From the IMG/VR virus record IMGVR_UViG_3300020345_000381, positions 6,474 to 70,473 of that record: a DNA stretch of 64,000 nucleotides. The stretch is one strand, 5' to 3'. Positions within the stretch are counted from its first letter, which is position 1. Each line of letters starts with the position of its first letter. The notes under the pieces were generated by a model. The model was not told the DNA's origin, searched no databases, and saw only the letters and a program-made list of their open reading frames with translations. Below are positions 3 through 64,000 of this stretch, piece by piece. Position numbers and translations under genes: made by a program. Source of the stretch: a virus. Lineage: Duplodnaviria; Caudoviricetes.

Positions 3-212
3 GGCGGAGAATGGTATGATGCGTCTTATCATGGGATTTTAGTTCATAGAGATTATGAGGCTAAAACAGTAAAAGCGAAAGTATTGAAAGTTAAATTTCA
101 AAACTTAGGTGAAAATGGTGCTGAAGCTCATTTTAAATGGGAACCTAAATCTGGATGTTTTATTCCACAAGAAGATCAACAAGTAATAAATGATATTATG
201 CCATGGGAATAA
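3..212 (+). CDS. C-terminal fragment of DnaB/T7 gp4-like primase-helicase (partial, runs off window start)
   Basis: Manual translation from nt 3: GGEWYDASYHGILVHRDYEAKTVKAKVLKVKFQNLGENGAEAHFKWEPKSGCFIP...MPWE*. This resembles SF4 helicase C-terminal motifs. It lies directly upstream of the nucleotide metabolism genes. Confidence 0.7.
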   Translation, partial: GGEWYDASYHGILVHRDYEAKTVKAKVLKVKFQNLGENGAEAHFKWEPKSGCFIPQEDQQVINDIMPWE

Positions 213-481
213 AAAACAGAAAAAAGAAAACCAATCCAATACCTAATTACATACCTAATTCAGACGAAAGAAAATGGTATATTTATTGTACAGACAATGA
301 TATAAGATTATTTCCTGTACCAGTTAGTGGAGAAATAGGTGTGTGGAAAATAGGTATTAATATTGGGGAATATAAAAAAGGTGAAACTCCTCATTTGTCC
401 CCTAATATATATACTAAAGATAATTTTTCTTATTCTTACTATCAAATGTGTAAATATTATTATGACAAACGTGAAAAATAA
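203..481 (+). CDS. hypothetical protein
   Basis: 92-aa ORF overlapping the helicase stop and the next start; ordinary codon usage. Confidence 0.6.
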   Translation: MGIKNRKKKTNPIPNYIPNSDERKWYIYCTDNDIRLFPVPVSGEIGVWKIGINIGEYKKGETPHLSPNIYTKDNFSYSYYQMCKYYYDKREK

Positions 482-1115
482 TTTTAAAAATGCTAACGAA
501 GCTTTTAAATATTTCTATTTTCATATTAAAAAATATGGTATAGATTTTGGAGATACAAAAGCTTTATTTAATGTAGGGTTTTATTTAGATAATCCTTTAC
601 AAGTTAATATAACGCATCCAAATAGAAATTGGAATATAGATTATGCTGAAGCAGAATGGCAATGGTATTTATCAGGAGATCCTAGTGTAGAAAAATTAGG
701 AGAAATATATGGTAAAGTTCCTCCAATATGGGATAAAATGGCTGATTCAGAAAGAAAGTGTAGGTCTAATTACGGGTGGCAATGGAACAGAAATCATCAA
801 ATAGATTATGTTGTAGCTAAATTAAAAGATGTAAAAGATACAAGACACGCTGCAATATCTATTTATGATGGAAAAGAAATTAACACTTATGCTAAAGATA
901 CTCCTTGTACTTATGCAATACAGTTTACTATCGTAAATAATAAACTAAATATGGCTGTTATGATGAGATCTAATGATCTCTGGTATGGCTTTTGTAATGA
1001 TCAGTATTGTTTTGTTATGTTACAAAAAATGATTGCAGAGAGGCTATCTATTGAACTCGGAAATTATTATCATTTTGCACATAATTTCCATTTGTATAAC
1101 AATAAAATTAAATAA
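462..1115 (+). CDS. thymidylate synthase-fold enzyme, probably dCMP-specific (hydroxymethylase/methylase-like)
   Basis: Catalytic Cys in DTPCT, RSNDLWYGFCND and HNFHLY motifs. Start moved from 363 to ATG 462 because the upstream part is a shadow of ORF 203-481. Confidence 0.85.
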   Translation: MTNVKNNFKNANEAFKYFYFHIKKYGIDFGDTKALFNVGFYLDNPLQVNITHPNRNWNIDYAEAEWQWYLSGDPSVEKLGEIYGKVPPIWDKMADSERKCRSNYGWQWNRNHQIDYVVAKLKDVKDTRHAAISIYDGKEINTYAKDTPCTYAIQFTIVNNKLNMAVMMRSNDLWYGFCNDQYCFVMLQKMIAERLSIELGNYYHFAHNFHLYNNKIK

Positions 1116-1122
1116 AATAAAT

Positions 1123-1896
1123 ATGTATTATTTATATCACATACCTGGTAAAAAAATAGGTGTTACAAGTAATCTTAATACAAGAGTTACACTTATACAA
1201 GGGTATAAAGAAGGAGAGTACGAAGTTCTAGAATCAAGTAAAGATATTAATTATATATCGGATCGAGAGATAGAACTTCAAAAGTCTTATGGCTATAAAG
1301 TAGATAGACGTAAGTACAATGAATTATATAAAAAATCAAATGATATGAACATAAACGCAACAGAGCAAACTTCTACTTTCCCATATCCAGTAAATGAATT
1401 GGAAGAAGCCCTTGTTAAACACAACGGAATGATTTGGGAAACTCAGTTTGGTACATTCAAACTAACAGATAATAATATTAAATGGATTATGTCTAATGTG
1501 CATGTATCTATGTATAACCAGAATAGATCTTATGTGTACAACAAAGCTTTTTATGAAAACTGTGTTAAAAAAGAAAATGTTAAGTGTAGTAAAAAACCTT
1601 TAAAAATGTTTCAGCAAATAAGAGATTGGGCTGAAGAAAGAGGGTTATATAAAACAGGTAATGCAAGAATTCAATATATAAAACTTCAAGAAGAGTGTGG
1701 AGAATTAGCTAAAGCTTTATTAAAAGATGATCAAACAGAAGTTATAGATGCTATAGGAGATATAGTTGTTGTATTAACAAACTTAGCACATCAAAGAGGA
1801 ACACATATAGAGACTTGTATTAGTTCTGCATATAATGAAATTAAAGGACGTACAGGTAGAATGATTAACGGAACATTTGTAAAAGATGAAAATTAA
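1123..1896 (+). CDS. GIY-YIG-like N-terminal domain fused to MazG-like nucleotide pyrophosphohydrolase
   Basis: N-terminus YYLYHIPGKKIGVTSNLNTR...REIELQ; C-terminus KLQEECGELAKA...DAIGDIVVVL (MazG EExxE...D motif). Start moved from 1033 to ATG 1123. Confidence 0.75.
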   Translation: MYYLYHIPGKKIGVTSNLNTRVTLIQGYKEGEYEVLESSKDINYISDREIELQKSYGYKVDRRKYNELYKKSNDMNINATEQTSTFPYPVNELEEALVKHNGMIWETQFGTFKLTDNNIKWIMSNVHVSMYNQNRSYVYNKAFYENCVKKENVKCSKKPLKMFQQIRDWAEERGLYKTGNARIQYIKLQEECGELAKALLKDDQTEVIDAIGDIVVVLTNLAHQRGTHIETCISSAYNEIKGRTGRMINGTFVKDEN

Positions 1897-2149
1897 TACT
1901 AAAGATCAAATAGTTTTATCTGTTTTAAAGAAAATGGATGAACGTAGTTTAGTTGGCCAAAAGAAATATGGTGCAACTATGATGGAAGAAATCGAAGGAC
2001 AAAAAAAAGATTTAAGTAGATTTCTTAATGATGTACAAGAAGAAATAATGGATACTCTCTTGTATATCGAAGCTGCTAAAAGATGTCTACAAGACGAGGT
2101 CGAAGAATGTATGTTAAAGCAACTTCATGTAAACTATGAAACGGTTTAG
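1886..2149 (+). CDS. small all-alpha NTP-pyrophosphatase-like protein
   Basis: GQKKYG...QEEIMDTLLY pattern, resembling MazG/dUTPase-superfamily helical proteins in phage nucleotide-modification loci. Confidence 0.5.
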   Translation: MKINTKDQIVLSVLKKMDERSLVGQKKYGATMMEEIEGQKKDLSRFLNDVQEEIMDTLLYIEAAKRCLQDEVEECMLKQLHVNYETV

Positions 2150-4132: not shown

Positions 4133-4136
4133 ATGA
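3828..4136 (+). CDS. putative overprinted +1-frame ORF in the nrdB 3' end, with a C-terminal transmembrane segment
   Basis: 102-codon ORF; nrdB avoids TTA/ATA throughout the overlap; ends GILILIFLLFVLLI-TRKLMKVK; ATGA overlap with the next gene. Confidence 0.5.
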   Translation: MQQKQCLKPKKSTLIKCSSSVISKTLKLTTLNNLSVKDSTKKLLNSVTQTNGNTLSLTKTQQKILTGSTILPGGILILIFLLFVLLITRKLMKVKILKIFGK

Positions 4137-4438
4137 AATTCTTATGCACTGCTTGTGGAGCCTGTTGTATGACTGCAGGTAAATTAAAATTAATGCCAGA
4201 CAGAGGAGATGGTGCTTGTATAAATTTAAATGATTTAAATTTGTGTAATATTTATGATGCAAGACCAGAATTTTGTAGTATTACTGATATGTATTATAAC
4301 TATAATTTAGAAGAAGAAGAAAATATAACTTTAAAAGAATGGTATATTAAAAACACAAAAGATTGTCATACTTTGATTGATCATTATAAATTAGATGATA
4401 AATATAAAGTAGACACCGAAGAATATGAGAACATGTAA
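4133..4438 (+). CDS. YkgJ-family cysteine cluster (Fe-S/Zn) protein
   Basis: CTACGACC...GDGACINL...LCNIYDARPEFC pattern. Confidence 0.8.
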   Translation: MKFLCTACGACCMTAGKLKLMPDRGDGACINLNDLNLCNIYDARPEFCSITDMYYNYNLEEEENITLKEWYIKNTKDCHTLIDHYKLDDKYKVDTEEYENM

Positions 4439-5581: not shown

Positions 5582-7289
5582 CGATTGGGTAAAAGGAAAA
5601 GATTATCCTTCTTGGGGTAATAACGATATATATAAACAAACTATAACTGGAGGTTATTTATTACCTACAGAAACTCCTCGTGAGGCTTATCAAAGAGTAG
5701 CTAAAACAGTTGCAAAACGTTTATATAAACCCGAATTATCAGAAAGGTTTTTTGAATATATTTGGAATGGTTGGCTTTGTTTAGCTTCTCCAGTTTTATC
5801 TAATACTGGCACAGATAGAGGTTTACCCATAAGTTGTTTTGGAATTGATGTAGCTGATAGTATTAATGATATAGGCCAAAAGAATTTAGAAATGATGATG
5901 CTTGCTAAACACGGAGGAGGAGTAGGTATTGGTGTTAATATGATTCGTCCTGCTGGAGCTAAAATAACTGGTAATGGTACATCAGATGGTGTGGTACCAT
6001 TCTGTAAAATTTATGATTCTACTATACTAGCAACTAATCAAGGAAGTGTTAGACGAGGAGCAGCTTCAGTTAATATAAATATAGAACATAAAGATTTTTT
6101 AGATTGGTTAGAAATAAGAGAACCTAAAGGTGATGTAAACAGACAATCACTTAATTTACATCAGTGTGCTGTAGTAGGAGATAAATTTATGAGAAGACTT
6201 GAGGCTGGTGATTCAGTATCACGAAATAAATGGAGTAAATTATTACAAAAAAGAAAAGCAACAGGAGAACCTTATATTTTATTTAAAGGTAATACTAATA
6301 AAGCCAATCCATCAGCGTATAAAGACAACGCTTTAAAAGTACATATGACAAACATATGTAGTGAAATTGTTTTACACACAGATGAATCTCACAGTTTTGT
6401 TTGTTGTTTATCTAGCTTAAATTTAGCTAAATACGAAGAATGGAAAAACACCAATATTATATATGATTCAATATGGTTTTTAGATGGAGTTTTAGAAGAA
6501 TTTATTCAAAAAGCTAAATATAGAAAAGGTTTTGAAAATTCTGTAAGATCTGCAGAAAAAGGTAGAGCATTAGGATTAGGAGTTTTAGGATGGCATACTT
6601 ATCTTCAAGAAAAAGGTTTACCTTTTGAAGGTTTGTTAGCTCAATTTGAAACAAGAAGAATATTTAGTCAAATAAAAATAGAATCTGAAAGAGCTAGTAT
6701 GGAATTAGCTGAAATATATGGAGAACCTTTATGGTGTAAAGGTACTGGAATGAGACACACTCATCTAAGAGCTATAGCACCAACGGTGAGTAATTCTAAA
6801 TTATCCGGTAATGTTTCACCAGGCATTGAACCTTGGGCAGCTAATGTATTTACTGAACAATCTGCTAAAGGAACTTTTATTAGAAAAAACCCTACATTAG
6901 TTAAAATATTAAGAAAACATAAATTAAATACAAATGAAATTTGGGATAAAATTTTGGCGGATGGTGGTTCAGTGCAAGCCATTGATGAACTTGATTCTGT
7001 GGTTCTTGCTAACGACATACCGGCTAAAGACGTTTTTAAAACGTTTAAAGAAATAAATCAACTTGAATTAATAAATCAAGCTGGCATACGACAACAATAT
7101 ATAGATCAATCAGTTAGTTTAAATTTAGCTTTTCCAGCAGAAGCTCCACCTAAATGGATAAATAAAGTTCATATAGATGCTTGGAAAAAAGGCGTTAAAA
7201 CACTTTATTATATGAGAACTGAGTCGGTATTAAGAGGTGATATTGCCGCTAATGCAATGGACCCAGGTTGTGTTAGCTGCGATGGATAA
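5571..7289 (+). CDS. nrdA: ribonucleotide reductase class I alpha subunit (no ATP cone)
   Basis: LPISCF, GGGVG, TNICSEI, VCCLSSLNL, IAPTVSNS, TLYYMR and C-terminal CVSC; only 572 aa. Confidence 0.95.
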   Translation: MWNNDWVKGKDYPSWGNNDIYKQTITGGYLLPTETPREAYQRVAKTVAKRLYKPELSERFFEYIWNGWLCLASPVLSNTGTDRGLPISCFGIDVADSINDIGQKNLEMMMLAKHGGGVGIGVNMIRPAGAKITGNGTSDGVVPFCKIYDSTILATNQGSVRRGAASVNINIEHKDFLDWLEIREPKGDVNRQSLNLHQCAVVGDKFMRRLEAGDSVSRNKWSKLLQKRKATGEPYILFKGNTNKANPSAYKDNALKVHMTNICSEIVLHTDESHSFVCCLSSLNLAKYEEWKNTNIIYDSIWFLDGVLEEFIQKAKYRKGFENSVRSAEKGRALGLGVLGWHTYLQEKGLPFEGLLAQFETRRIFSQIKIESERASMELAEIYGEPLWCKGTGMRHTHLRAIAPTVSNSKLSGNVSPGIEPWAANVFTEQSAKGTFIRKNPTLVKILRKHKLNTNEIWDKILADGGSVQAIDELDSVVLANDIPAKDVFKTFKEINQLELINQAGIRQQYIDQSVSLNLAFPAEAPPKWINKVHIDAWKKGVKTLYYMRTESVLRGDIAANAMDPGCVSCDG

Positions 7290-7801: not shown

Positions 7802-8224
7802 TTATTTACCTTTACATTTACAATTATTTTCTCCACAAGTGCACTGTTTATTTTTACTATAAAGAGTATCAAATGCGTTTGCACCTAATAGAGTTAGTTG
7901 ATCAATCATGTTAGTTTGTATTTTAATTAACATTTTTTCAAGCTCATCTTTTTGAGTTACTAAATGATCTACTTTAGAAGTTAAACCTTCGTTTTGTTTT
8001 TTAAGTTCATTTACTTCATCTGGATTTCTTCCGATTACAGTCATTATTACCACTGACAAAGACCCTACAATCATACCTATTATAGATACAACAACATCTT
8101 TATTCATGTTTGGTATTTCGTTATATGATAAGAAAACTAGTATACCTATTACTAATAAAAATATACCAATTGCCCCTACATAATGCCTTAATTCTTTTGC
8201 TACGCCGTTTGTTATTTTCATCAT
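7802..8224 (-). CDS. 2-TM membrane protein with coiled coil (holin or spanin-like candidate)
   Basis: Two hydrophobic helices, heptad region and Cys-rich tail; adjacent to the endolysin. Confidence 0.55.
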   Translation of the reverse strand: MMKITNGVAKELRHYVGAIGIFLLVIGILVFLSYNEIPNMNKDVVVSIIGMIVGSLSVVIMTVIGRNPDEVNELKKQNEGLTSKVDHLVTQKDELEKMLIKIQTNMIDQLTLLGANAFDTLYSKNKQCTCGENNCKCKGK

Positions 8225-11200
8225 TTGTTGTACTTTATTATTTTTCTTTTTGGTTTTCTTTTAGATTTTTTATTTGATTTAGATTTCTTAATTCCTAGTT
8301 CCCAATCAGACCATCCTGCAAGCATTGCTATTCTTTGCCACGCTTCATAGTCTGAACTGCTAGCTTTTCTTATATTATCAATTTTTTTAAATGCTCTATC
8401 AAGTGGAATATTTGTAGTTGCAGCAATAACTTGGCCTGCTGCTAAATATGCAGGATTATCTAATGAAAATCCTTTTTCCATCATTTCTTTTTTATTCCAA
8501 TCATAAGTTCTACCAGCAGCTCTTAGTTTACTTAGTTTAGAAGATACAGGAGGAGAAAGTTGAGCTATTTCTTTAACTAATACATCTTGAAATTTAGGTG
8601 ATTTCTTTTGAGCTTCTTTACTTAATTTAATAGCTGTGTTTTTTAACACGGAAAATATAGCACCTCCTACACCAGCGCCTCTTAATATACTATCAGCCAT
8701 AGAATTGACTATATTATAATATTTTTCCTGTCTTTTTTCTGTTTCTTCTTCTTCATCTCCAAAGCCCATAGCAAATAAAGCTTGTTGCATAGCGTTGAAA
8801 AATAGATTTTGTACAAATCCATAATAAAATATCTTAGATATATTGGTTATTGTGTCTCCTCGGCCATTTCTAAGATCACTAGCAGCTTTTTTAATCAACC
8901 TAGTGTATTGCATTGGAGTGTTAGCAAAAGCTAATATAACGCGCCCTAATGGTCCAGCTTGTTGTTGACTAATTCTGTCCGGTCTACTGGACTGTTGAGC
9001 TTCTTCTGCAATTTCTCTAAAATCTATAAAAGCTTGATTCTCCGCTTCTGCTTTAGACATACCTTCTTTAGTATACTTTTTAACTCTATTTCTATAAAAT
9101 GTAGAACCACCAGATGCAATAGCAAAACTATCTGCTAACTGAGTAGGTAAAAATCCTATTCTAAGTATTTCACTTATAACTCCTCTTACACCACCTTTTT
9201 TAGCCATGTCAGCTATATCAGTTTCATTTACATTTAATCTCAATCCGTTTCTTCTATCTACTAAAAAGTCACTATTAAAAAGTGTAAGAAAATCTTTCCA
9301 AAATTGAGGTTGATTTGCAAACGCTTTACCCGCAGCAAATAAATTGTTGTCTTTAAAATTTATAAAGTTAACAGCAGATATAGTTTGAAGAACCGCTGAT
9401 CTTGTATTAAAAAACATTATTGCACCAATAGAATTAGTTAACCAATCTGTTACTCTACCTGTTAAAGAATCAGAGGTAAATTCCCTGTTTCTACCCGTAC
9501 GCATTCTTTTTAATATATTTTCCAGTGCATCTCTATATCCTTTACCATAAGCAGCTTCAAGTTTATTTAAATTAGCTTTAGTAAATATTTCATCTACATT
9601 ATACTGCCATTGTTCTAAATATTTAGCTCTTTTAATAGTGTTGATACCATCAATTAAATCAGTGGTGATATTTCCAGCTAACCAACCAAATTTAGGAGCC
9701 GGATATTGATCTCCTTTCTGCATTGCAATTAATTGATTTGCAAAAGTAACTAATTCGGGTTTACTATCTACAAAATCAGTTAGATCTTTTAAATCTTTTT
9801 TAGACATACCTTCTGGCGACATTCCCTGTCTATTCCAAATATAAGTTCTTATTGCTTGTTCTTGAGTAAAAGGTTCTCCGGGTAATTTTTTCTTAAGATT
9901 TTTAGGAACAATTTTTAATTCTTTTTTAAGAGCTTTAAAATCATTCATAAGCGCTATTCTATCTCTTGATATGTTATCCATTGCTGTAGCAAAAGGATCC
10001 AATAGGTTTTTCTTATACCAAGCCATTTGAGCATCTCCAAGCTTTCCTTTACCTAAGGTTTTATATAATAATCCTACAAAATCTTCAGCAGATGGTGGAA
10101 CAAAGAAATTGAATTTTCCTTTATTTGCACCAACTACTTGAGCTTTAACATCTGAATAAACTTTATCAGCACCAATACCAGTTTTGTTTTCTAATATTTT
10201 ATTAAAGTCTTCACTTAAATTTTGTGATTCACTAAATGCCAGACGCTTTTCGTTGTCAATATTATCAACTTCTGCCATTTTATCTAACACCACATCATTA
10301 ATTAACTCTCCTTTAACTTGATCTTTTTTAGGTAAAATTTTATTATTAATAGGAGCAGCTTTTAAAATAGAATTATTTAAAGCTAAAAATTCTGTTCCAT
10401 ATATTTTTCCTTTATCTCTTCCACCTATAGATTCTAAAGCATACATATCTTTAAACCCTTTGTTTAATGCATTATAATATCTAGGCAAAACACCCATGTA
10501 GATTTTCCACCATGAAGGAAATGACTCTTGATGTAATACGTTTATTCTTGCATCCATTTCCACTGGAATCATAGCAACAACTTGATTTCTTTTCAATACT
10601 TTTAAATCAACACCATCCCCATAAAAATGTTTAATCATATCTTTAGACAAAACCAAAGAAGGATACATGTGTTCAAATCTAATTTCTCCTTTTGCTTTAC
10701 CTTTATAAAAATATTTTGGATAAGCCACCCGCTTTCCTAAAGCATTCATATTAGATTTAAGAGCCATTAAAGCCATACCAAATTGATATTTATCTCCATT
10801 TTTGTTTACATAATCAAGATAATCTACCATAGCATCAAAAGCTTCACCTGCTTCTTTTTTTCTATCTTTATATTCTTTAGTAAGTATATTTTTAGGTAAG
10901 TTGTTTTTTTGAGAAAAATTTTTAATTTTTTCTTTAAACTCTTTATCGGTTAATTTTGTTTTTCCATTAAACTCTACATTTTTTATTCTAATATTTTTAG
11001 TACCACTAAATATTATTTTAATATTATTTGGAGCTAATGTTTCATTAAGAGTATTTATCCAATCTAAAGAACCAGCATAACCTTGATATCTTCCTTTACC
11101 AATTCTTCCTGCACTTGTATTAAAATCTTTAAGAAATTTTATAATATGAATAATACCTTCTAAATCTCCTAATTTTTTTATTTGATTTAGTTGATAATCA

Positions 11201-14200
11201 TTTTGTATTTTTCTAAATGTTTTTAATTGATCAATATTATCAAACCCTAAACCAGGATTTATTTCAAGTCCTAATTCATTTTTAATAGTAATATCCGCAA
11301 CCCATAATTCTAAAGCTTCTTCTGCTATATTTATAAATTCTCCTTTTTTTACTAAATCTTTCTTTAAATTTTTTATAAATTTTGGAGCTATTTTAGATAA
11401 ATTTTTAGCATAATTTTCTAATACTTCTATTGGAATATTAACTTCCGATAAGTTTTCTGTTAAAGCTAATAATGTTGCATTTTGAAAATTATAATCTAAA
11501 GTTTCAACAGCATTAAAAATAGTTGTAATTATATTTGCGCTTTTATTTTTAACAAAATCTAATTGTTTAGAAGTTAACTTTTGTTTACCTATGTTAGCTT
11601 CGCTAAACATTAAATCACTTTTACCTTCAGCTATAGGTAAAACTTGACTCGGTGTAAATCCTTGTTTAGTTAAAATATCTCTTACAGCTTTATTAGTTAG
11701 TGCCCTACCTGTTAATTCTAATATACCTTTTACAGCTTGCGAAGTGTTTGTTCTAACTTTAACATCAGGAGATTTAACATTACCTTCTATACCTAGTGCT
11801 TTTTTAAATTTATCTACTGTTAATCCAGGTTTTTTAGTCCATTGATAATTATTACCTATTCTCTTGCCTTTGTCATAAAATAAATTTAATACGGATCTAG
11901 GTATACCGGTTGGATCTCCACCAACTAAAGTTGTTTTACTAGGATCATTTAAATAAGGTACTCTAGCTAAATCTGTATTTGCTTTTGGTAATAAATTAAA
12001 TAAAGTCGAAGCATTTTTATTTATAAACATTAGAGCTTTAGTTAATTCTTCTTTACTAAGATTAGCAGTAGGATCAAATATTTTTTTAGCAGGTATTCCA
12101 ATAAGATCTGCTATAGCATCTTCATCTAAAGTTTTTAATGTTTTATAGTTTAATGCATTTATATCTTGATCTTTTAAAGCTTTTTCAGTTGTTTTTATAA
12201 ATTTATCTTTTAAAGCTGTATCAGTAAACAATCTTAATGGATCTATTGTTGGTGCTATATCTTTTTGTAAAGGTACAGTTTCAGTATCTGCAATAACTTG
12301 TTTAGCTCTAGGATCATCAACACTTGTTGTTTTTGATTTATCACCTATTTCTTTTTCATAGAATTCTTGTCTTTTCTTTAATATAGTATTAGTTAAATAT
12401 GTACTAAATTGAGATTTAGTAGGTTTAAATCCTCTAGTTATATTAGGAAAATATTTATCTACAAAACTAATAGCTTCAGCTTTAGTAATAGTACCTTTAG
12501 CAGGGTCAAACCCTAAAGCTTTTAAAGCTACATTTCTATATTGATTAACAAAAGACGTAAGGTTTTCAGTAGACATAGCATCTACATTTTCTTTATATTC
12601 TTTTGCTAATTCATTTAAAGTGTTTGGTGCAACAGAAGCAGCTATATCATATTGCTTTTCCATATCTACTTTTGACTCCTTAGGTACTAATTTAGATTTT
12701 TTAGCGGCTACAATATCAGTTTTACTCAATGTTCCATCTGCTATTTTTTTAGCTAATCCAACTACAAAATCTACAATATCTGTTTCTCCTTTAAAATCAA
12801 AAGAATCTTTAAATTCTCGTTGAACCATTGCTCCAAAAAACCCAGCTAATCCTTTACGCTTTTCATTTAATACAAAATCTTTTTTACCAGCTAATTCAAT
12901 AAATCTCATAATAGCTTCTTGACTATTATAACTATCACTTTCAGGATTAGCATCAGGATTGTTTTTAACCCAAGTTTGATAAAAATTAGGGTCTGAAATT
13001 TTTACAGTTTGTAATAATTGTTTAGCAATATTATCAAAAGCTTTTGATTCTCTACCAAATATTTTCCAAAACACTTGATGCCCTACCTCATGAGTAGCAA
13101 TATTTTTTCTTTGATTAGCAATTTGATTTTCAACTACTACAAAACTTCTATCTGTATTTGGATCTGCCCAACCATCACCACCTTCATTTACTATAGCCCA
13201 AGCTTTATCTCCTTGTCCCTCCTCATATTTACCACTATCTTTTTGTCTATCAATATAATCTAAGGCTTCTTGTTTTGTTGTAAATTGTCTTAACGAAACT
13301 CCTTCTGCACCTGCTTTATTGTTAGCTTTTATAATTTCTTCTTCTAAATAAGCTTCATAAGCATATCTTTCAACTTCTTTTTTATCTGGTCTATAATCTG
13401 GACCTCTATCTTTAACAGCAATTTTTCGACCTTTAGACATTAAAGAATTATAACGAGTTATATCTGTACTTTCTAATTGAACAAATTCAGGTCTATAAAG
13501 TTGTAAATTATTATCATTTAAATATTTTTGTTTAATATTTTCAACTATATCGTATTTTTTTTGTAAATTTCTTATTAATTGTTGTTTTTCTTCTACAGAA
13601 AGTGTTGTGCTATTTTGAATCTCTGTAGCACTTACTCTAAATTCTTCTTGGAGCTTTATCATTTCTACATACCCTTGTGCTCCTTTAGCTCTAATATTAT
13701 TTTTTACACTATTTTCTATTTCTTTAGAAGCTTCTTGTATTCTCCAAGCATTTTCTTTTATTTGTAATTCATATTCTTTTTTCATTAAAGGAGATCTAGC
13801 TCTAATTAACTTTCGTCCTAAATCTCTTTGTTCTTGTAATAAACCTTGCATTTTCTTATTTTTATTATAATCAGAAAAAGCAGAGTTATATACACTTTGA
13901 GCAAAAGGAATACCACCAAAAAGAATACCAAAACCAAAACCAGTAAAACCAGCATGATCAATACCCAACATAGGATCAACCCCGTCAATTAAATTTTGTG
14001 TAAATTGTGTTGCGCCTTCTGCTCCAGACTCAAGAAAGGGAGCATAAAGTAAAATATTATTATTTTTCCACCAAGCTTTCATTCCGTTGTCTACAACACT
14101 TTTTGCTGTTCCAGTAGCTAAACTATTTTTAGCAGCTCGTAAAATAGGAATAGTAGAAAGAGCAGCAAACCCACCTTCTGCAACTCCATAACCTAAGGAT

Positions 14201-15999
14201 TTAGCCCATATTTCCCAATCTTTCCAATCTTTTTGACCGGTTGCAATTTCAGTTTGCATGTCCATCATTTTCTTTCCGGCAGTACTAGCTCCAATAGTAT
14301 AAGCTGCGGCTCCTCCAGACAGTATAATAGTTGTAAGTATTGGAATTTGTTTTGTTATTTCTTGTGCAGCAAATTTACCAAAATTTTCTCCACTAGAAAA
14401 AGCATCATCAAAAGCAATATCTTCAACATATTCTTCCCTCATTTTATTACTCCATAAATTATATTGTACGCCTACACTAGTAACAACATCTTTTAAGTCT
14501 TTAATTTCATCGTCTTCTTTACTACTAAGAGCTAATCCTTTTAAGACATTTTTTGGTAATTTCTGGGAAACTAAATCAAGAGCTTTACCCGTTGTAGTAA
14601 AATTTAAAAGAGCTTGATATTGAAAACCCATTAAAGAAGCACCAATATCTACAAATCCTACCCCTAGTTCTATAATAGCTTTTTCGGCTAAATCATAATT
14701 TTTATTTGCAGCACTTAATATCATTTTATCTCCCGAAGCATCTTGTTGATATTGCACCATTTGGTTAATTAAAGAAGAATGTGTAGCTACTGATCCTTTT
14801 ATTTTATTAGTTAATAAATTATAAGCATTTAAAGTAGATTGATTTACAGTTCGTCCATTTGTTAATTGAACTTGTAAGTCATCTGTAGGATCTATTGGTA
14901 TTCCTAACTGTATAAGTTCTTTTTCTAATTCAATATAATCTTTTTCACTTAATTTATTATCTACACTTAAATAATTAACAAACTTAGGATAAGCACTTTC
15001 GAGTACTTTCATAGTAGGTATATTTAATTGTACTTTTTCTTGTACTTTTTTTAAATCACTTAACTCTCTTTCCTCAGAAAGTAGTGCACCTACATAAATA
15101 TCATCTTGTAAAGAAGGATCTTCTGCTATTATTCTTTGTGTCGCTTTATAGTTTGTATCTAAATTTGCTTGAAAAAGCAATCTTTCTCTTAACAACGATT
15201 CAGTTTCTTCGTTTAATTTATTTTCATTTGGTAAAGTTTTCCCTGATTTTTTGTAAGAATTAATTATCTCTTGTTTTGTAGCTTCTAATTCTTTTTTGTA
15301 TGGTTCTACAGTTTCTTGAAATGTATAACCTGTATTAGCTCGTCCATAAACCTCCTTAGTAACTTCATAAGGAACAAATAATTCAGGATTATAGTATTGT
15401 TTTTGATTTTCTTCTTTTTCTTTAATAACTTCTTTATTGTTATCTATTAAAGTTTCAAATGTAGATAACTCTTGTTCTTTTTCTTCTGCAAATTTATTTT
15501 TTTCTTCTTCTGAATAATTTCTTTCTTTAAGAAAATTTTTAATTATATCAGTATTCTTTTTAATTTTGTAAGGATTTTCTGTATCTAGTTCTATATAATC
15601 AGAAACAATAATTTCACCATCCGTATTTGTATAAGATAATCTTCCTTTATTACTTTCATTATAAGTATTAGGGGGATTCATAGGGCCTCCAACACCAGCG
15701 AAATGAACCAACTTAGCTTCATCTCTGTTAAACTCTATATCACTTCCTTCTAATAATTTATTAATTCTATCACTACCTTCTTTAGAGTCAATTTTATAAA
15801 AATCATCTCCAATAACATCAGTTATAGTATCAAGAGAAAATGGATCAGATTTAATATCTATTTCTTCCATAATCTCTATACCATCATCTAATTTTTTAAG
15901 ATTGAATTTTTTTACATATTCGTCAAAAGAAATACCCATTTGATCTGCAACAAATTGAATATCATCTTGGTTATATGCTTCCCCGTTTAATTCCCACAT
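8221..15999 (-). CDS. giant virion ejection/polyvalent protein (2592 aa)
   Basis: Size and position after the internal-virion genes; HEVGH zincin motif; LPD38-like C-terminal region (LAFANTPMQY). Confidence 0.7.
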   Translation of the reverse strand: MWELNGEAYNQDDIQFVADQMGISFDEYVKKFNLKKLDDGIEIMEEIDIKSDPFSLDTITDVIGDDFYKIDSKEGSDRINKLLEGSDIEFNRDEAKLVHFAGVGGPMNPPNTYNESNKGRLSYTNTDGEIIVSDYIELDTENPYKIKKNTDIIKNFLKERNYSEEEKNKFAEEKEQELSTFETLIDNNKEVIKEKEENQKQYYNPELFVPYEVTKEVYGRANTGYTFQETVEPYKKELEATKQEIINSYKKSGKTLPNENKLNEETESLLRERLLFQANLDTNYKATQRIIAEDPSLQDDIYVGALLSEERELSDLKKVQEKVQLNIPTMKVLESAYPKFVNYLSVDNKLSEKDYIELEKELIQLGIPIDPTDDLQVQLTNGRTVNQSTLNAYNLLTNKIKGSVATHSSLINQMVQYQQDASGDKMILSAANKNYDLAEKAIIELGVGFVDIGASLMGFQYQALLNFTTTGKALDLVSQKLPKNVLKGLALSSKEDDEIKDLKDVVTSVGVQYNLWSNKMREEYVEDIAFDDAFSSGENFGKFAAQEITKQIPILTTIILSGGAAAYTIGASTAGKKMMDMQTEIATGQKDWKDWEIWAKSLGYGVAEGGFAALSTIPILRAAKNSLATGTAKSVVDNGMKAWWKNNNILLYAPFLESGAEGATQFTQNLIDGVDPMLGIDHAGFTGFGFGILFGGIPFAQSVYNSAFSDYNKNKKMQGLLQEQRDLGRKLIRARSPLMKKEYELQIKENAWRIQEASKEIENSVKNNIRAKGAQGYVEMIKLQEEFRVSATEIQNSTTLSVEEKQQLIRNLQKKYDIVENIKQKYLNDNNLQLYRPEFVQLESTDITRYNSLMSKGRKIAVKDRGPDYRPDKKEVERYAYEAYLEEEIIKANNKAGAEGVSLRQFTTKQEALDYIDRQKDSGKYEEGQGDKAWAIVNEGGDGWADPNTDRSFVVVENQIANQRKNIATHEVGHQVFWKIFGRESKAFDNIAKQLLQTVKISDPNFYQTWVKNNPDANPESDSYNSQEAIMRFIELAGKKDFVLNEKRKGLAGFFGAMVQREFKDSFDFKGETDIVDFVVGLAKKIADGTLSKTDIVAAKKSKLVPKESKVDMEKQYDIAASVAPNTLNELAKEYKENVDAMSTENLTSFVNQYRNVALKALGFDPAKGTITKAEAISFVDKYFPNITRGFKPTKSQFSTYLTNTILKKRQEFYEKEIGDKSKTTSVDDPRAKQVIADTETVPLQKDIAPTIDPLRLFTDTALKDKFIKTTEKALKDQDINALNYKTLKTLDEDAIADLIGIPAKKIFDPTANLSKEELTKALMFINKNASTLFNLLPKANTDLARVPYLNDPSKTTLVGGDPTGIPRSVLNLFYDKGKRIGNNYQWTKKPGLTVDKFKKALGIEGNVKSPDVKVRTNTSQAVKGILELTGRALTNKAVRDILTKQGFTPSQVLPIAEGKSDLMFSEANIGKQKLTSKQLDFVKNKSANIITTIFNAVETLDYNFQNATLLALTENLSEVNIPIEVLENYAKNLSKIAPKFIKNLKKDLVKKGEFINIAEEALELWVADITIKNELGLEINPGLGFDNIDQLKTFRKIQNDYQLNQIKKLGDLEGIIHIIKFLKDFNTSAGRIGKGRYQGYAGSLDWINTLNETLAPNNIKIIFSGTKNIRIKNVEFNGKTKLTDKEFKEKIKNFSQKNNLPKNILTKEYKDRKKEAGEAFDAMVDYLDYVNKNGDKYQFGMALMALKSNMNALGKRVAYPKYFYKGKAKGEIRFEHMYPSLVLSKDMIKHFYGDGVDLKVLKRNQVVAMIPVEMDARINVLHQESFPSWWKIYMGVLPRYYNALNKGFKDMYALESIGGRDKGKIYGTEFLALNNSILKAAPINNKILPKKDQVKGELINDVVLDKMAEVDNIDNEKRLAFSESQNLSEDFNKILENKTGIGADKVYSDVKAQVVGANKGKFNFFVPPSAEDFVGLLYKTLGKGKLGDAQMAWYKKNLLDPFATAMDNISRDRIALMNDFKALKKELKIVPKNLKKKLPGEPFTQEQAIRTYIWNRQGMSPEGMSKKDLKDLTDFVDSKPELVTFANQLIAMQKGDQYPAPKFGWLAGNITTDLIDGINTIKRAKYLEQWQYNVDEIFTKANLNKLEAAYGKGYRDALENILKRMRTGRNREFTSDSLTGRVTDWLTNSIGAIMFFNTRSAVLQTISAVNFINFKDNNLFAAGKAFANQPQFWKDFLTLFNSDFLVDRRNGLRLNVNETDIADMAKKGGVRGVISEILRIGFLPTQLADSFAIASGGSTFYRNRVKKYTKEGMSKAEAENQAFIDFREIAEEAQQSSRPDRISQQQAGPLGRVILAFANTPMQYTRLIKKAASDLRNGRGDTITNISKIFYYGFVQNLFFNAMQQALFAMGFGDEEEETEKRQEKYYNIVNSMADSILRGAGVGGAIFSVLKNTAIKLSKEAQKKSPKFQDVLVKEIAQLSPPVSSKLSKLRAAGRTYDWNKKEMMEKGFSLDNPAYLAAGQVIAATTNIPLDRAFKKIDNIRKASSSDYEAWQRIAMLAGWSDWELGIKKSKSNKKSKRKPKRKIIKYNK

Positions 16000-36930: not shown

Positions 36931-37199
36931 TTTGATCTACCTTCAGCAAAACCTTTAAAGTTATTACCTCGATTTTCTTTTTTAATTTCTTTTAACATAT
37001 TCTCTTCTTCTTCTATACGACTTAATATTTCAAACGCATCAAATACTGCTAATTTTTTAGTAGCAGCGGCGTTTTTTAATCTATCAGCCGAAACATCATC
37101 TTCTGAATCTACAATTTTTTCTTTTGCTACTTTAATTAATTCTTCAACTGCTTTTTGCCCAGCTTGGATTATACTCTTCTTGGTTTGTTTTGTGTTCAT
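36927..37199 (-). CDS. putative terminase small subunit
   Basis: 90-aa helical protein overlapping the terL start (ATGA). Confidence 0.45.
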   Translation of the reverse strand: MNTKQTKKSIIQAGQKAVEELIKVAKEKIVDSEDDVSADRLKNAAATKKLAVFDAFEILSRIEEEENMLKEIKKENRGNNFKGFAEGRSK

Positions 37200-37734
37200 A
37201 TTTAATTACAATATCATTTGATTCCATACAATATAAAAGTTCATTATCAATAATAAATTCAAATTCTCTAAGTGGTTTAAACCCTATTATATCTCCTGGA
37301 TTTATTTTAAGCACTTCTAATGAACTATTACCATATTTTAATATCCCTTTATTCTTTATTATTTTTTCATCTTCTAATAAAGGTTTTACAAAACAATAGT
37401 TTTCGTTAGGTATCCACTTATTTTTTTGATAATACATGTATACTTGAGAGGGAACTGCAAAATATAAATCATCTTTAAAATATTTAGTACTATTCACTGA
37501 TTTACCTTTCATGTTATAGTATCTTCTAAATAAATTATGATGTACTATAACTTTATCTCCTTTTTTAATTTTAGTATTATATATAAGCGGAACACTAACT
37601 ACTTCTGCTTCTCTATTTACAAATTTGTGACTAGATATAGTAGAATTAACAATTAATTCACAACCATCAATATTAATTTTGTTTTTATATCTTTCCCCAA
37701 TAGGTTTAATAATAAATTGATATAAACTTTTCAT
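37144..37734 (-). CDS. tandem GroES-like co-chaperonin
   Basis: Two GroES-like repeats: FIIKP...AEVVSVP...IKKGDKVIV and CFVKP...GILKY...INPGDIIGF...IDNELLYCMESNDI. Confidence 0.6.
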   Translation of the reverse strand: MKSLYQFIIKPIGERYKNKINIDGCELIVNSTISSHKFVNREAEVVSVPLIYNTKIKKGDKVIVHHNLFRRYYNMKGKSVNSTKYFKDDLYFAVPSQVYMYYQKNKWIPNENYCFVKPLLEDEKIIKNKGILKYGNSSLEVLKINPGDIIGFKPLREFEFIIDNELLYCMESNDIVIKYEHKTNQEEYNPSWAKSS

Positions 37735-43563: not shown

Positions 43564-44010
43564 TTATCTATTTTTATCTTTATTTACATTTTTTATAGCG
43601 GTTATTAAAACTTTATCTGTATAAGTTTTACCATGCATTATTGAATTTCTTCTTTTACTTGTTGGTACATCTTCTTCACCTAGCATAATTCGGTACATTC
43701 GTGCTATTAGTTGTCTACACTTGAAAGAAACTTTATAGATATTATACTTTTGGGTTGTTCTGTTTCGATTTCTCCAAACTACAATCCAGTTGTTTTTTAT
43801 CATTTTGTTCCAGCGTCTATTATCCCAACTATACGCATAAGTACCGATTTTAAAATCTTGCTTAGTAAAAAGATCCATACAATCGAAATATATTAATAGT
43901 TCTAAATCCGCATCGTTTAAGTTATTGTTTCTACATGCCCATTTTCTAATAAGCCTATAATGTTTTAATAGATTTAAATCCTTTATATCACTTGAATTTA
44001 ATTTCCTCAT
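43564..44010 (-). CDS. putative winged-helix DNA-binding protein
   Basis: DLELLIYF...RWNKMIKNNWI...YKVSFKCRQL pattern resembling MarR-type wHTH. Confidence 0.4.
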   Translation of the reverse strand: MRKLNSSDIKDLNLLKHYRLIRKWACRNNNLNDADLELLIYFDCMDLFTKQDFKIGTYAYSWDNRRWNKMIKNNWIVVWRNRNRTTQKYNIYKVSFKCRQLIARMYRIMLGEEDVPTSKRRNSIMHGKTYTDKVLITAIKNVNKDKNR

Positions 44011-44267
44011 AAAACCACAACAACATCTTGTAATTTAATAACAGTAAATTTATCTTTGTTGAATTCAATTCCATGACCAGCATGACGATCATAATAAATT
44101 AAATCACCTTTATTTAAACCTTTTATATCCTCACTAACAGAAACTACTTCAGCTTTTCTATATCTAATATCTTCCCTATCTTTTTCTATTATAAGTAATC
44201 CACCTTTAGTTTTATCGGTTTTTATTTTTTCAGGTTTAATTATAATATTATTTCCTATTGCTTTCAT
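44007..44267 (-). CDS. groES: co-chaperonin GroES
   Basis: KAIGNNIIIK...KTKGGLLI...AEVVSV...KGDLIYY; adjacent to groEL. Confidence 0.9.
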   Translation of the reverse strand: MKAIGNNIIIKPEKIKTDKTKGGLLIIEKDREDIRYRKAEVVSVSEDIKGLNKGDLIYYDRHAGHGIEFNKDKFTVIKLQDVVVVL

Positions 44268-45819
44268 CAATTCTTAAATTATTGATTACACAATCAGTTG
44301 ATAATATTGTAGTTGCTACAGATACAGCATTTATTAAAGCACTTTTAGTTACAAGAAGTGGATCAATAATACCTTCTTTAATCATATCAACAACTTCACC
44401 CGTTATTACATTTAATCCTTTACCTTTTACTTTACCTAATAATTCCGGTAAAGAATCTTGAGGACATAGTATTCCAGCATTATCTAAAATTACTCTAAAT
44501 GGAGATTCTATAGCTTTTAATAAAACTTTTTCTCCATCATTATCTGTTTTAATATTTTGTCCGGCATTAAGAAGAGCTATACCACCACCGGGTACAATAC
44601 CTTCTTTTATAGCGGCTTTTGTCGCACAAATAGCATCTTCTATTCTATCGGATTTTTCTTTTAATTCTATATCAGAATTTGCACCTACTTTTACTATTGC
44701 TATTTTAGCGGATAATCTTGCTAATCTTTTCTCTAGTCTTATTAAATGAGCTGGATTAGGTTTATTAGCTAATTCTTCTTTAACTGTTTTTATAACATCT
44801 AAAACAGCTTGATTTGGTTCACCTACTTGTAATATAGTATCTTTTTCATCAGTTATAGACTTTAAACAACTTCCTAAAAATTCAGGTTGTATTAAATCCA
44901 TATCATCACCAAGATCTTCATTGATGACAGTAGCGCCAGTAAGCATTGCTAAATCATCTAATGTTTCTCTTTTATTTACACCGAATGTAGGTGCATTTAC
45001 AATATTTATTTTTATATTACCTTTAGTTTTATTCATAGCAAGTGTTGCCATTACAGGTGCTTCTACATCTGCTATAATAAGTAAAGGTATATTCTTTTTT
45101 ATAACATGCTCCAATACAGACTGAATTTGTCTTATATTTTCTACTGGAGATTCTATAAGTAATACTGCGGGGTTTTCTAGTTCTGCAGTCTTTTTTGCTT
45201 TGTTAGTAATAAAATGCGGATTTGTCAATCCTTTTTCATATTGTACACCATCAACTAATTCAATTTCAGTTTCAGGTAAGGATGAATGTTCCATCATTAC
45301 TACACCTGTTTCACCAACAGATCTAAATGCATCCCCGATAATTTTTCCAAGGGTTGGTTCATTATTTGTAGATATAGTAGCTATTTGATCAATCATCTCA
45401 CCTTTTACAGGAATAGATATTTTTTCTAAATATTTAACTACTTTTTTTACAGCCTTATTAATATTTTCTTTTAATTCTCTAGAATTTATATCAATACCTT
45501 TAGCTTGTTCAAGTATAGCATGAGCTAATACTGTTGCTGTTGTTGTACCATCACCTGCTTCTGAAACTGTTTTTCTAGCAGCTTCTTTTAAAAGTGTGGC
45601 ACCCATATTTTCTACAGGATCTAATAAAACTATTGAATTTGCTACAGTAACCCCGTCTTTAGTAATAATTGGGTTACCCTTATCATCTTCAAGTAAAACA
45701 CACTTACCGCTAGCCCCTAAAGTGGAGCTAACAGCTTGCGTGAGTTTATCGATTCCTTTAAATACTTGATTCTGAGCATCTTGCCCAAAATTAAGATTCT
45801 TGACTATTAAGTCTGGCAT
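44248..45819 (-). CDS. groEL: chaperonin GroEL
   Basis: STLGASG, ITKDGVTVA, GDGTTTATVLA, DRIEDA, GIVPGGG, GIIDP; no GGM tail. Confidence 0.97.
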   Translation of the reverse strand: MPDLIVKNLNFGQDAQNQVFKGIDKLTQAVSSTLGASGKCVLLEDDKGNPIITKDGVTVANSIVLLDPVENMGATLLKEAARKTVSEAGDGTTTATVLAHAILEQAKGIDINSRELKENINKAVKKVVKYLEKISIPVKGEMIDQIATISTNNEPTLGKIIGDAFRSVGETGVVMMEHSSLPETEIELVDGVQYEKGLTNPHFITNKAKKTAELENPAVLLIESPVENIRQIQSVLEHVIKKNIPLLIIADVEAPVMATLAMNKTKGNIKINIVNAPTFGVNKRETLDDLAMLTGATVINEDLGDDMDLIQPEFLGSCLKSITDEKDTILQVGEPNQAVLDVIKTVKEELANKPNPAHLIRLEKRLARLSAKIAIVKVGANSDIELKEKSDRIEDAICATKAAIKEGIVPGGGIALLNAGQNIKTDNDGEKVLLKAIESPFRVILDNAGILCPQDSLPELLGKVKGKGLNVITGEVVDMIKEGIIDPLLVTKSALINAVSVATTILSTDCVINNLRIDESNRK

Positions 45820-63636: not shown

Positions 63637-63760
63637 ACCAATAAAACCTTATATCTATCAAGTAACTTATGTTGAAAATGGTCATCAAATGTCGTTTCAA
63701 GGAAGTGCTAGAGATGTTATAATACATATATTGGATTCGCAAATTAAATATGGGAACTAG
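63626..63760 (+). CDS. early hypothetical protein (44 aa)
   Basis: Manual translation MANKPIKPYIYQVTYVENGHQMSFQGSARDVIIHILDSQIKYGN. Confidence 0.45.
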   Translation: MANKPIKPYIYQVTYVENGHQMSFQGSARDVIIHILDSQIKYGN

Positions 63761-64000
63761 AAGTTTAACAAGAGTAATACCAAGACAAGAAGGTGTTGCG
63801 TATGACAAAGGTCATAAGATGATCAAGAAGTCGATAATAAATATGTACCAACAATATGATGGTTATCCATCTTATGTAGGTGTTAAATTAGCTGAGTTTG
63901 TAAAACCAATTAAAATAATAAATGGTATTTCAGGTTCAGTTAAAATAGGTGAATATGCTAATGGTCCGGGTTGTTTAGCAGCTCAGATAGTGCAGGAATT
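63750..64000 (+). CDS. phage hypothetical protein (partial, runs off window end)
   Basis: Manual translation MGTRSLTRV...NMYQQYDGYPS...LAEF...ANGPGCLAAQ. Confidence 0.7.
   Translation, partial: MGTRSLTRVIPRQEGVAYDKGHKMIKKSIINMYQQYDGYPSYVGVKLAEFVKPIKIINGISGSVKIGEYANGPGCLAAQIVQE

Follow-up and report, generated by a model that had tools for sequence, protein, structure and literature searches.

A compact thymidylate-synthase-family protein of a marine phage, a predicted dCMP 5-hydroxymethylase in a conserved gene block

What does a thymidylate synthase (TS) homolog make if the residues that read its usual substrate have been replaced? The question is raised by a gene at positions 462 to 1115 of a 64,000-nucleotide stretch of DNA, here called the window, which covers bases 6474-70473 of the 70,473-bp virus record IMGVR_UViG_3300020345_000381. 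The source is an uncultured marine phage of lytic type, belonging to a phage group that is very common in the ocean, and CheckV rates the record as 100% complete. The original prediction, made from the letters alone, read the gene as a homolog acting on deoxycytidine monophosphate (dCMP) in a candidate cytosine hypermodification locus. The analysis favours a plainer reading, in which the protein makes 5-hydroxymethyl-dCMP (5hm-dCMP) and 5-hydroxymethylcytosine (5hmC) ends up in the phage DNA. On comparison of sequences and gene neighbourhoods, this reading is given a probability of roughly 60%.

Family, fold and signature residues of the synthase homolog

462..1115, + strand: short TS-family enzyme of 217 amino acids, read as a putative dCMP 5-hydroxymethylase (open reading frame (ORF), PF00303, alignments, model and homologs)

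The ATG of the synthase homolog overlaps the preceding ORF, which encodes a 92-amino-acid protein, by 20 nucleotides, and the stop codon lies 8 nucleotides ahead of the next gene. The translation, which includes DTPCTYAIQF and MRSNDLWYGFCNDQYCF, matches Pfam PF00303 (E 4.7e-24, 85.4 bits against a cut-off of 24.3) and, among the PHROGs, phrog_160 (5.6e-38). Reference sequences for the alignments were E. coli thyA, T4 genes 42, 56 and 1, the Xp12 dCMP methylase, the deoxyuridine monophosphate (dUMP) hydroxymethylases of SPO1 and phiW-14, RB69 gp48 and td, and homologs from Enterococcus phage VPE25 and Bacteroides phage BF503P2.

The stretch RSNDLWYGFCND of the query aligns with RSCDVFLGLPFN of E. 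coli ThyA and RSNDVVFGFRND of T4 gp42 (the T4 dCMP hydroxymethylase), and thus Asp180 occupies the position of ThyA Asn177. The catalytic motif is PCT in the query, PCH in ThyA and MCT in T4 gp42. The 177 site is Asn in both dUMP hydroxymethylases (SPO1 and phiW-14) and Asp in both dCMP enzymes, which is the split expected from established biochemistry. The key codons are at 897-899 (Asp146), 906-908 (Cys149) and 999-1001 (Asp180). Asp is found in the 177 column in all 116 full-length nearest representatives of 50%-identity clusters, drawn from a library of 1.8 billion proteins, and Cys-Thr in 107 of these. Both features are invariant in 121 close homologs (69-100% identity). As judged from these alignments, the Asp/PCT signature is a fixed trait of the family and not chance. 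The Asp at the Asn177 position and the PCT in place of PCH, on which the original prediction was built, are therefore confirmed by the alignment, the 116 representatives and the 121 homologs.

The remainder of the active site is also conserved. Equivalents of ThyA Glu58, Tyr94, the catalytic Cys, Arg166, Ser167, Asp169, His207 and Tyr209 are all present (Glu65, Tyr104, Cys149, Arg169, Ser170, Asp172, His210 and Tyr212), and none of them varies among 60 diverse homologs, of identities down to 31%, or among the 121 close ones. The close homologs also keep every diagnostic residue, including Asp146, Ser102/Tyr104 and Arg128. Arg169 to Asp172 form the motif Arg-Ser-Asn-Asp. The protein ends 5 residues past His210-Leu-Tyr212, with no ThyA-like C-terminal tail, and the ending HLYNNK[LI]K is the native terminus across the clade of the query.

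The AlphaFold model, for which 60 homologs were used, has very high confidence (predicted local distance difference test (pLDDT) 96, predicted template-modelling score (pTM) 0.92), and thus the short 217-residue protein holds a complete core fold. In a PDB search with the model, 396 or more structures matched at E<=0.001, and those among the matches listed all belong to the TS family. The best structural match is MilA, a cytidine monophosphate (CMP) 5-hydroxymethylase (template-modelling score (TM) 0.90, root-mean-square deviation 1.8 Å), with the flavin monooxygenase 9iqc at TM 0.86 and T4 gp42 and ThyA enzymes at about 0.77-0.81. Sequence matches to solved structures are MilA (1e-18), T4 gp42 (7e-16), ThyA (about 4e-12) and 9iqc (1e-6).

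In a quick maximum-likelihood tree of 62 sequences, the query falls within a supported 23-row clade of short forms, including the BF503P2 protein. This clade is nested in a supported 44-row clade containing T4 gp42, a grouping that is consistent with, rather than decisive for, a dCMP hydroxymethylase. The Xp12 methylase, the SPO1 and phiW-14 dUMP hydroxymethylases, RB69 gp48 and the VPE25 group all lie outside the 44-row clade. The query belongs with cytosine-specific C5-modifying homologs, in agreement with the cytosine-type assignment first proposed for it.

The predicted reaction

The ternary complex of the T4 enzyme provides a signature for hydroxymethylation, consisting of Asp or Glu three residues ahead of the catalytic Cys together with Ser-x-Tyr (PMC6400193). 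In that study, the acidic residue activates the substrate water, Ser-x-Tyr holds the water that abstracts the proton, and D145N abolishes formation of 5hm-dCMP. The query has both parts, as Asp146-Thr-Pro-Cys149 and Ser102-Asn-Tyr104. The same paper restates that K133 and A176 of MilA set its preference for CMP and that K133R/A176S switches the preference to dCMP. Arg128 and Ser170 of the query align with these two positions and are of the dCMP type, as in T4 gp42. A third rule comes from a 2026 study of glycosylated 5-hydroxycytosine, in which some gp42-like proteins are flavin-dependent 5-hydroxy-dCMP synthases and all of those tested carry D169N (PMC13326640). The query keeps Asp172 (RSND) at this site, and RB69 gp48 reads RSQN, in agreement with that study.

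Every testable residue rule agrees, and so the product is read as 5hm-dCMP rather than deoxythymidine monophosphate (dTMP), 5-methyl-dCMP, 5-hydroxy-dCMP or hydroxymethyl-CMP. That the synthase homolog has dCMP hydroxymethylase activity is considered likely. The original prediction had left 5-hydroxymethyl-, 5-methyl- and 5-hydroxy-dCMP side by side; the diagnostic residues favour the first, and the other two are argued against by Asp172, Asp146 and the missing tail.

Other reactions have some points in their favour. A different C5 chemistry on dCMP, be it methylation of the Xp12 type, flavin hydroxylation of the RB69 gp48 type or an undescribed reaction tied to the C-terminal loss, could be proposed because the model superposes well on 9iqc, which is similarly short, and because the family has lately yielded new chemistry. 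However, the hydroxylases have Asn where the query keeps Asp172, and the sequence similarity to 9iqc is far below that to MilA or T4 gp42. The Xp12 methylase reads KNVPCP, with Asn ahead of the Cys, and has a ThyA-like hydride-transfer tail of about 65 residues, whereas the query has KDTPCT at this point and lacks the tail. As Xp12 and RB69 gp48 also lie outside the supported clade of the query, both a flavin 5-hydroxy-dCMP synthase and an Xp12-type dCMP methyltransferase are disfavoured as models for it, and this class of alternatives is improbable as a whole. MilA is the best match among solved proteins in both sequence and structure, and a CMP hydroxymethylase serving RNA or a small-molecule pathway instead of DNA might therefore be considered. 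It is very improbable, as the determinants of CMP use in MilA are replaced by Arg128 and Ser170, as in T4 gp42, and the gene shares an operon with replication and ribonucleotide reductase genes in a phage of lytic type. An ordinary divergent TS supplying dTMP for a 70% A+T genome would fit with the gene being the only TS-family gene, beside ribonucleotide reductase and with no ThyX, and databases label its relatives 'thymidylate synthase'. Yet Asp180, Thr150 and Asp146 stand in place of Asn177, His147 and Leu143, the C-terminal tail is gone, Asp is common to all nearest relatives, and ThyA matches less well than the hydroxymethylases do. A canonical ThyA is thus hardly credible, and the earlier statement that this is not a dTMP supplier is upheld, since the protein lacks the Asn that reads dUMP, His147, hydrophobic Leu143 and the tail.

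The favoured reading is a minimal, presumably homodimeric, folate-dependent dCMP 5-hydroxymethylase, with chemistry assigned by homology to T4 gp42. Cys149 would attack C6 of dCMP while Asp180 reads the N3/N4 face of the cytosine. Glu65 would then open methylene-tetrahydrofolate, so that the one-carbon unit joins C5, and a water held by Ser102 and Tyr104 would take the C5 proton. Finally, a water activated by Asp146 would add to the exocyclic methylene, giving 5hm-dCMP and tetrahydrofolate, and not a methyl group.

The gene neighbourhood and the fate of the product

1123..1512, + strand: N-terminal domain of gene 2, of about 130 residues, starting with MYYLYHIPGKKIGVT and resembling GIY-YIG/T5orf172 (language-model neighbours)
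1513..1896, + strand: C-terminal domain of gene 2, a MazG/PRA-PH all-alpha nucleoside-triphosphate pyrophosphohydrolase domain (PF03819, PF01503, phrog_715 and 1vmg)
1886..2149, + strand: gene 3, an acidic two-helix protein of 87 amino acids with conserved KYG, EE35 and QEEIMD, overlapping gene 2 by 11 nucleotides
203..481, + strand: ORF for a 92-amino-acid protein (ORF list), running at its 3' end into the synthase homolog gene

Gene 2 (1123-1896, 257 amino acids) has two domains, and its MazG/PRA-PH match is confined to residues ~131-257. This half scores 24.8 bits with PF03819 (cut-off 22), 24.5 bits with PF01503 (cut-off 21.3) and 1.6e-32 with phrog_715, and its QEECGE and EVIDAIGD, carrying the EExxE and ExxD metal-binding motifs, align to the MazG-like PDB entry 1vmg (E 0.0033). 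Residues 1-130 have no Pfam match at E<=1. Among the language-model neighbours of this domain, 11-48% of members carry T5orf172, presumably a GIY-YIG-type domain, and the resemblance to T5orf172/GIY-YIG is a lead only. The N-terminal module (MYYLYHIPGKKIGVT, window 1123-1330) is also fused in frame ahead of a truncated TS homolog in a metagenomic protein (P0124), and another Asp-type homolog (P0184) bears an N-terminal SegE-like GIY-YIG and NUMOD3 endonuclease. These fusions suggest homing-endonuclease traffic around the genes, or gene-calling chimeras. Among the longer Asp-type homologs, the only fusion partner found is the GIY-YIG/NUMOD3 homing endonuclease, with no kinase and no pyrophosphatase.

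Gene 3 is modelled as a two-helix hairpin (pLDDT 74). Its EEIEG...QEEIMD spacing recalls MazG motifs, but an hhalign comparison with the MazG domain profile of gene 2 gives a probability of 4.6%, over 14 columns only. It has no Pfam match save EncFtn-like at 0.011 and no PHROG-function or PDB sequence match; fold searches (Foldseek against PDB, VIA-align) return generic coiled coils only, and a language-model atlas gave no function. With the low profile probability and the generic fold matches, gene 3 is not accepted as a MazG-like pyrophosphatase. Both genes after the synthase homolog had been taken as MazG-like; this stands for residues ~131-257 of gene 2 and is not supported for gene 3, which has no supporting profile or fold match. 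Gene 3 is very frequent in marine metagenomes, with the exact 87-amino-acid protein on 80 contigs. The 92-amino-acid protein at 203..481 has no Pfam or PHROG match, and related contigs (L010-L013) have a gene for 93 amino acids in the same place, with the primase-helicase on one side and the TS homolog on the other.

At least 588 IMG/VR loci encode close relatives of the synthase homolog. Synteny was counted in 73 related loci with enough downstream sequence, found with a 16-sequence alignment; these are close relatives from one phage lineage. In 72 of the 73, the TS homolog is directly followed by a MazG domain, as claimed for a pyrophosphatase neighbour, and a gene-3 homolog is present in 66. 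Rearrangements keep the adjacency: three loci have gene 3 ahead of gene 2, next to the TS homolog, and in three others the MazG domain lacks the N-terminal domain. Gene order from the primase-helicase to the reductase genes is the same in four longer contigs. In other lineages, the neighbour of the Asp-type homolog is either a gene for a trimeric dUTPase fold (VPE25, BF503P2) or one for a dCMP deaminase, and thus a nucleotide-pool enzyme of varying type is a recurrent partner of Asp-type homologs.

Two relatives have unusual settings. In the cultured gut phage BF503P2 of Bacteroides (L014), two TS-family paralogs (6055-6861 and 8935-9615), one from the short clade and one very divergent, flank the trimeric dUTPase-fold gene, and both are annotated as dCMP hydroxymethyltransferase. 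In a Logan contig from SRR8893622 (L106), a short-clade homolog with 47% identity (P0134, gene 6001-6669) translates correctly only with TGA as Trp; a dCMP deaminase gene follows it directly, and a methyltransferase-like gene and a dUTPase gene precede it. This phage may have a recoded genetic code and a different partner set.

In the pathway proposed here, the MazG domain of gene 2 most likely hydrolyses deoxycytidine triphosphate (dCTP), perhaps also deoxyuridine triphosphate (dUTP), to the monophosphate. Like T4 gp56, it would thereby clear the competing nucleotide and supply the hydroxymethylase with substrate. Host CMP and nucleoside diphosphate kinases, and a host replicase recruited by the phage primase-helicase, would then make and incorporate 5hm-dCTP. 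The virion DNA would carry undecorated 5hmC and be shielded from host nucleases. In MetaGPA, the family most strongly associated with virome DNA that survives modified-cytosine selection is PF00303, with 177 (Asp) and a changed 147 as its most discriminating positions, and PF01503 and DNA ligase domains are among the co-occurring families (PMC8670742). This phage has the signature (Asp177 and changed 147) and all three domains (PF00303, PF01503 and DNA ligase). The MazG domain of gene 2 is accordingly placed as a candidate dCTP-clearing enzyme, with a substrate suggested by its position and by that co-occurrence. In Enterococcus phage VPE25, the DNA has bisulfite-resistant cytosines (PMC4999554), and its homolog, 36% identical with the same motifs, adjoins a beta-glucosyltransferase gene.

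T4 needs a deoxynucleoside monophosphate (dNMP) kinase of its own. Six-frame searches of the whole genome found no T4 gp1-like dNMP kinase, no family A or B DNA polymerase (PF00476, PF00136), no dCMP deaminase, no ThyX or second TS-family gene and no T4-type or GT2 glycosyltransferase (PF09198, PF00535). A Walker-A scan of the early genes found no P-loop protein beyond the helicase, and Pfam and PHROG scans of about 70 ORFs found no transferase, carbamoyltransferase or kinase. A set of 49 further ORFs likewise gave no dNMP kinase, DNA glucosyltransferase or DNA polymerase. As no phage kinase, DNA polymerase, deaminase or glycosyltransferase is detected, the best reading is plain 5hmC that depends on host kinases and the host polymerase. 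The original prediction saw no glycosyltransferase in the window, and for the families tried this extends to the whole genome. It also called the region a hypermodification locus and proposed a search of the rest of the genome for a dNMP kinase or transferase. Neither was detected (T4 gp1, PF09198 and PF00535 in six frames; Pfam and PHROG scans), nor was any carbamoyltransferase or deaminase, in a genome rated complete, and the hypermodification claim is not sustained.

Two alternatives accept the enzyme as predicted and differ in what becomes of its product. The phage DNA may not be substantially substituted, with the cassette acting on nucleotide pools, for example by draining dCMP and dCTP, or giving partial, low-level substitution. 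The missing gp1-like kinase, extra P-loop protein and DNA polymerase would fit this, as would the only trace amounts of modified base in E. coli DNA when a synthase is expressed alone, with no kinase (PMC13326640). The active-site residues are, however, invariant across hundreds of relatives, pointing to a strongly selected function. To our knowledge, there is also no precedent for a role restricted to pools, which counts against it. Virome contigs with fully modified cytosine are, moreover, marked most strongly by Asp177-type homologs (PMC8670742), and this alternative is judged unlikely. True hypermodification goes further in the opposite direction, with one or more small proteins (candidates are the 87- and 92-amino-acid proteins and the N-terminal domain of gene 2) decorating 5hmC after replication, by an undescribed group or enzyme family. 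Gene 3 and the N-terminal domain are conserved beside the synthase homolog with no assigned function, and many early genes have no family. Against this, no glycosyl-, carbamoyl- or other transferase, kinase or sugar-nucleotide gene is found (Pfam and PHROGs on the ORFs tested, six-frame PF09198 and PF00535), and the candidates, at 87-130 amino acids, are too small for known DNA transferases, leaving only a slim chance for it.

Several points weigh against unmodified acceptance of plain 5hmC in the phage DNA, starting with the missing kinase, polymerase and P-loop protein, which make high-level replacement via host kinases uncertain. The 73 syntenic loci represent one lineage, and their conservation may reflect descent. 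The MazG neighbourhood may be generic pool-cleaning, and phrog_715 is frequent in phages not noted for base modification (Streptococcus, Staphylococcus, Riemerella) and widespread without a TS homolog. In the enzyme itself, the phosphate ligand Arg21/Lys28 of ThyA/T4 has no clear counterpart, although an invariant Lys33 a few residues further could stand in for it. Residue 129 is His or Gln in the 121 homologs, and not the second of the paired arginines; Gln is also found at this position in SPO1 gp29. The recent discovery of 5-hydroxy-dCMP synthases within the same family shows that similar sequences may conceal a chemistry that was not expected. In the tree, which comes from a quick search, T4 gp42 has a long end branch (2.24) and its position is unsure. 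In the phylogenetic check suggested at the outset, the query shares a supported clade with T4 gp42, with Xp12 and the dUMP hydroxymethylases outside, and that branch keeps the grouping tentative.

A bolder proposal is that the minimal cassette, consisting of the 217-amino-acid hydroxymethylase, a MazG-type dCTPase with a GIY-YIG-like fusion and the 87-amino-acid acidic helical protein, suffices for wholesale 5hmC replacement with host kinases and replicase in an abundant lineage of marine Bacteroidota phages. The cassette would then be for cytosine what the three-gene set of cyanophage S-2L is for 2-aminoadenine, and either the 87-amino-acid protein or the N-terminal gene-2 domain would be a new, undescribed pathway component. 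As a whole, this proposal is doubtful.

The phage genome and comparison with known systems

The genome has a G+C content of about 30%. Its early region codes for DNA ligase, a sigma factor, an Erf-type annealing protein, an exonuclease, the primase-helicase and both ribonucleotide reductase subunits. Directly after nrdB, between the two reductase genes, is an ORF (4133-4438, +) for a 101-amino-acid CxxCxxCC (PF03692) putative zinc- or iron-chelating protein. A capsid-region protein is 42-48% identical to proteins of Maribacter phage Panino, Flavobacterium Elemoviruses and Cellulophaga phages, and thus the host is probably a marine member of the Flavobacteriia. No TS homolog was found in the cultured structural relatives (Maribacter phage Panino, an Elemovirus and a spring-water podovirus). 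An ORF leaving the end of the record (window 63750-64000) stops four codons past the junction with genome base 1, which fits a complete, circularly permuted genome. One scanned structural ORF, which the tally does not specify, matches the Crassvirus muzzle families PF25729 and PF25731, hinting at kinship with crAss-like podophages. A single ORF of 2592 amino acids (8221-15999, -) adjoins the lysis genes. Three ORFs (37144-37734, 44007-44267 and 44248-45819, all -) encode a GroEL-like and GroES-like pair, recognised by eye, and a 196-amino-acid protein that matches the GroES co-chaperonin family phrog_13932 in two stretches.

Avoidance of restriction sites was considered as a proxy for modification and set aside as uninformative in both directions, with most C-containing 4-mers near expectation. 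Observed to expected ratios of 4-mer palindromes are 1.04 for GATC, 0.98 for CCGG, 0.97 for GCGC and 1.0 for TCGA; only CATG (0.60) and CTAG (0.73) are low. Palindromic 6-mers with and without G/C are depleted to about an equal degree. CATG is strongly rare genome-wide (103 observed, 172 expected, z -5.3).

If the reading is correct, T-even phages and a handful of phages from gut or sewage would not be alone in having 5hmC DNA, which would be common in the ocean. In the literature searched, no paper ties 5hmC to flavobacterial phages of the sea. The result would bear on sequencing and quantification of marine viromes, since nanopore calling and some ways of preparing libraries handle modified DNA differently, on which host defences shape flavobacterial phage-host dynamics, and on the smallest gene set able to rewrite a DNA base. 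At 217 amino acids, the enzyme would be among the most compact of its family, and handy for studying how water attack is enforced over hydride transfer with no C-terminal segment.

Among known systems, T4 gp42 (PDB 1b5e, 6a9a) shares with the query its superfamily and fold, Asp at 177, Cys-Thr from the nucleophile on, Asp three residues ahead of the Cys, the SNYGW motif, RSND, the absence of the ThyA C-terminal tail and, tentatively, a common supported clade. Identity is, however, about 23-24% over the structural alignment, and the query is 29 residues shorter, lacks T4 Arg220 and does not clearly conserve Lys28. T4 also has the gp1 kinase, glucosyltransferases and its own polymerase, none of which is detected here. 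MilA of Streptomyces rimofaciens (PDB 5jnh, 5b6d) has Asp at the 177 and 143 positions like the query, but is a bacterial antibiotic-pathway enzyme of 325 amino acids with a C-terminal extension, and has ribose-selecting K133/A176 in place of Arg/Ser.

T4 gp56, a dCTPase/dUTPase, is the proposed functional analogue of gene 2. It matches dUTPase_2 and, weakly, PRA-PH, which we take to belong to one Pfam clan, the C-terminal half of gene 2 also matches PRA-PH, and both genes are near a hydroxymethylase gene. On the other hand, gene 2 has the extra 130-residue N-terminal domain, and pairwise BLAST of gp56 is not significant with either gene 2 (E 0.09) or gene 3.

The closest protein from a cultured phage, annotated 'deoxycytidylate 5-hydroxymethyltransferase', is that of the Bacteroides phage BF503P2 group (226 amino acids, 47% identity). 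It resembles the query in its short architecture and its motifs, and it belongs to the 23-row clade as well. We know of no experimental data for it. BF503P2 is a different phage type, with the dUTPase-fold gene and the divergent TS paralog beside the gene instead of MazG. The Asp177-type homologs of MetaGPA (PMC8670742) share with this phage the 177 and 147 signature, the PF01503 pyrophosphohydrolase and an ATP-dependent DNA ligase, whereas the contigs often carry carbamoyltransferase or deaminase genes, neither of which is detected here. Neither the sequence motif of this lineage nor a family table was found in the supplementary text of that paper. The kind of system is thus already known, and similar metagenomic homologs are already linked to modified DNA. 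What is notable appears to be the minimal enzyme, the conserved three-gene block with two unassigned parts, and an abundant lineage apparently making do with no dedicated kinase, polymerase or transferase.

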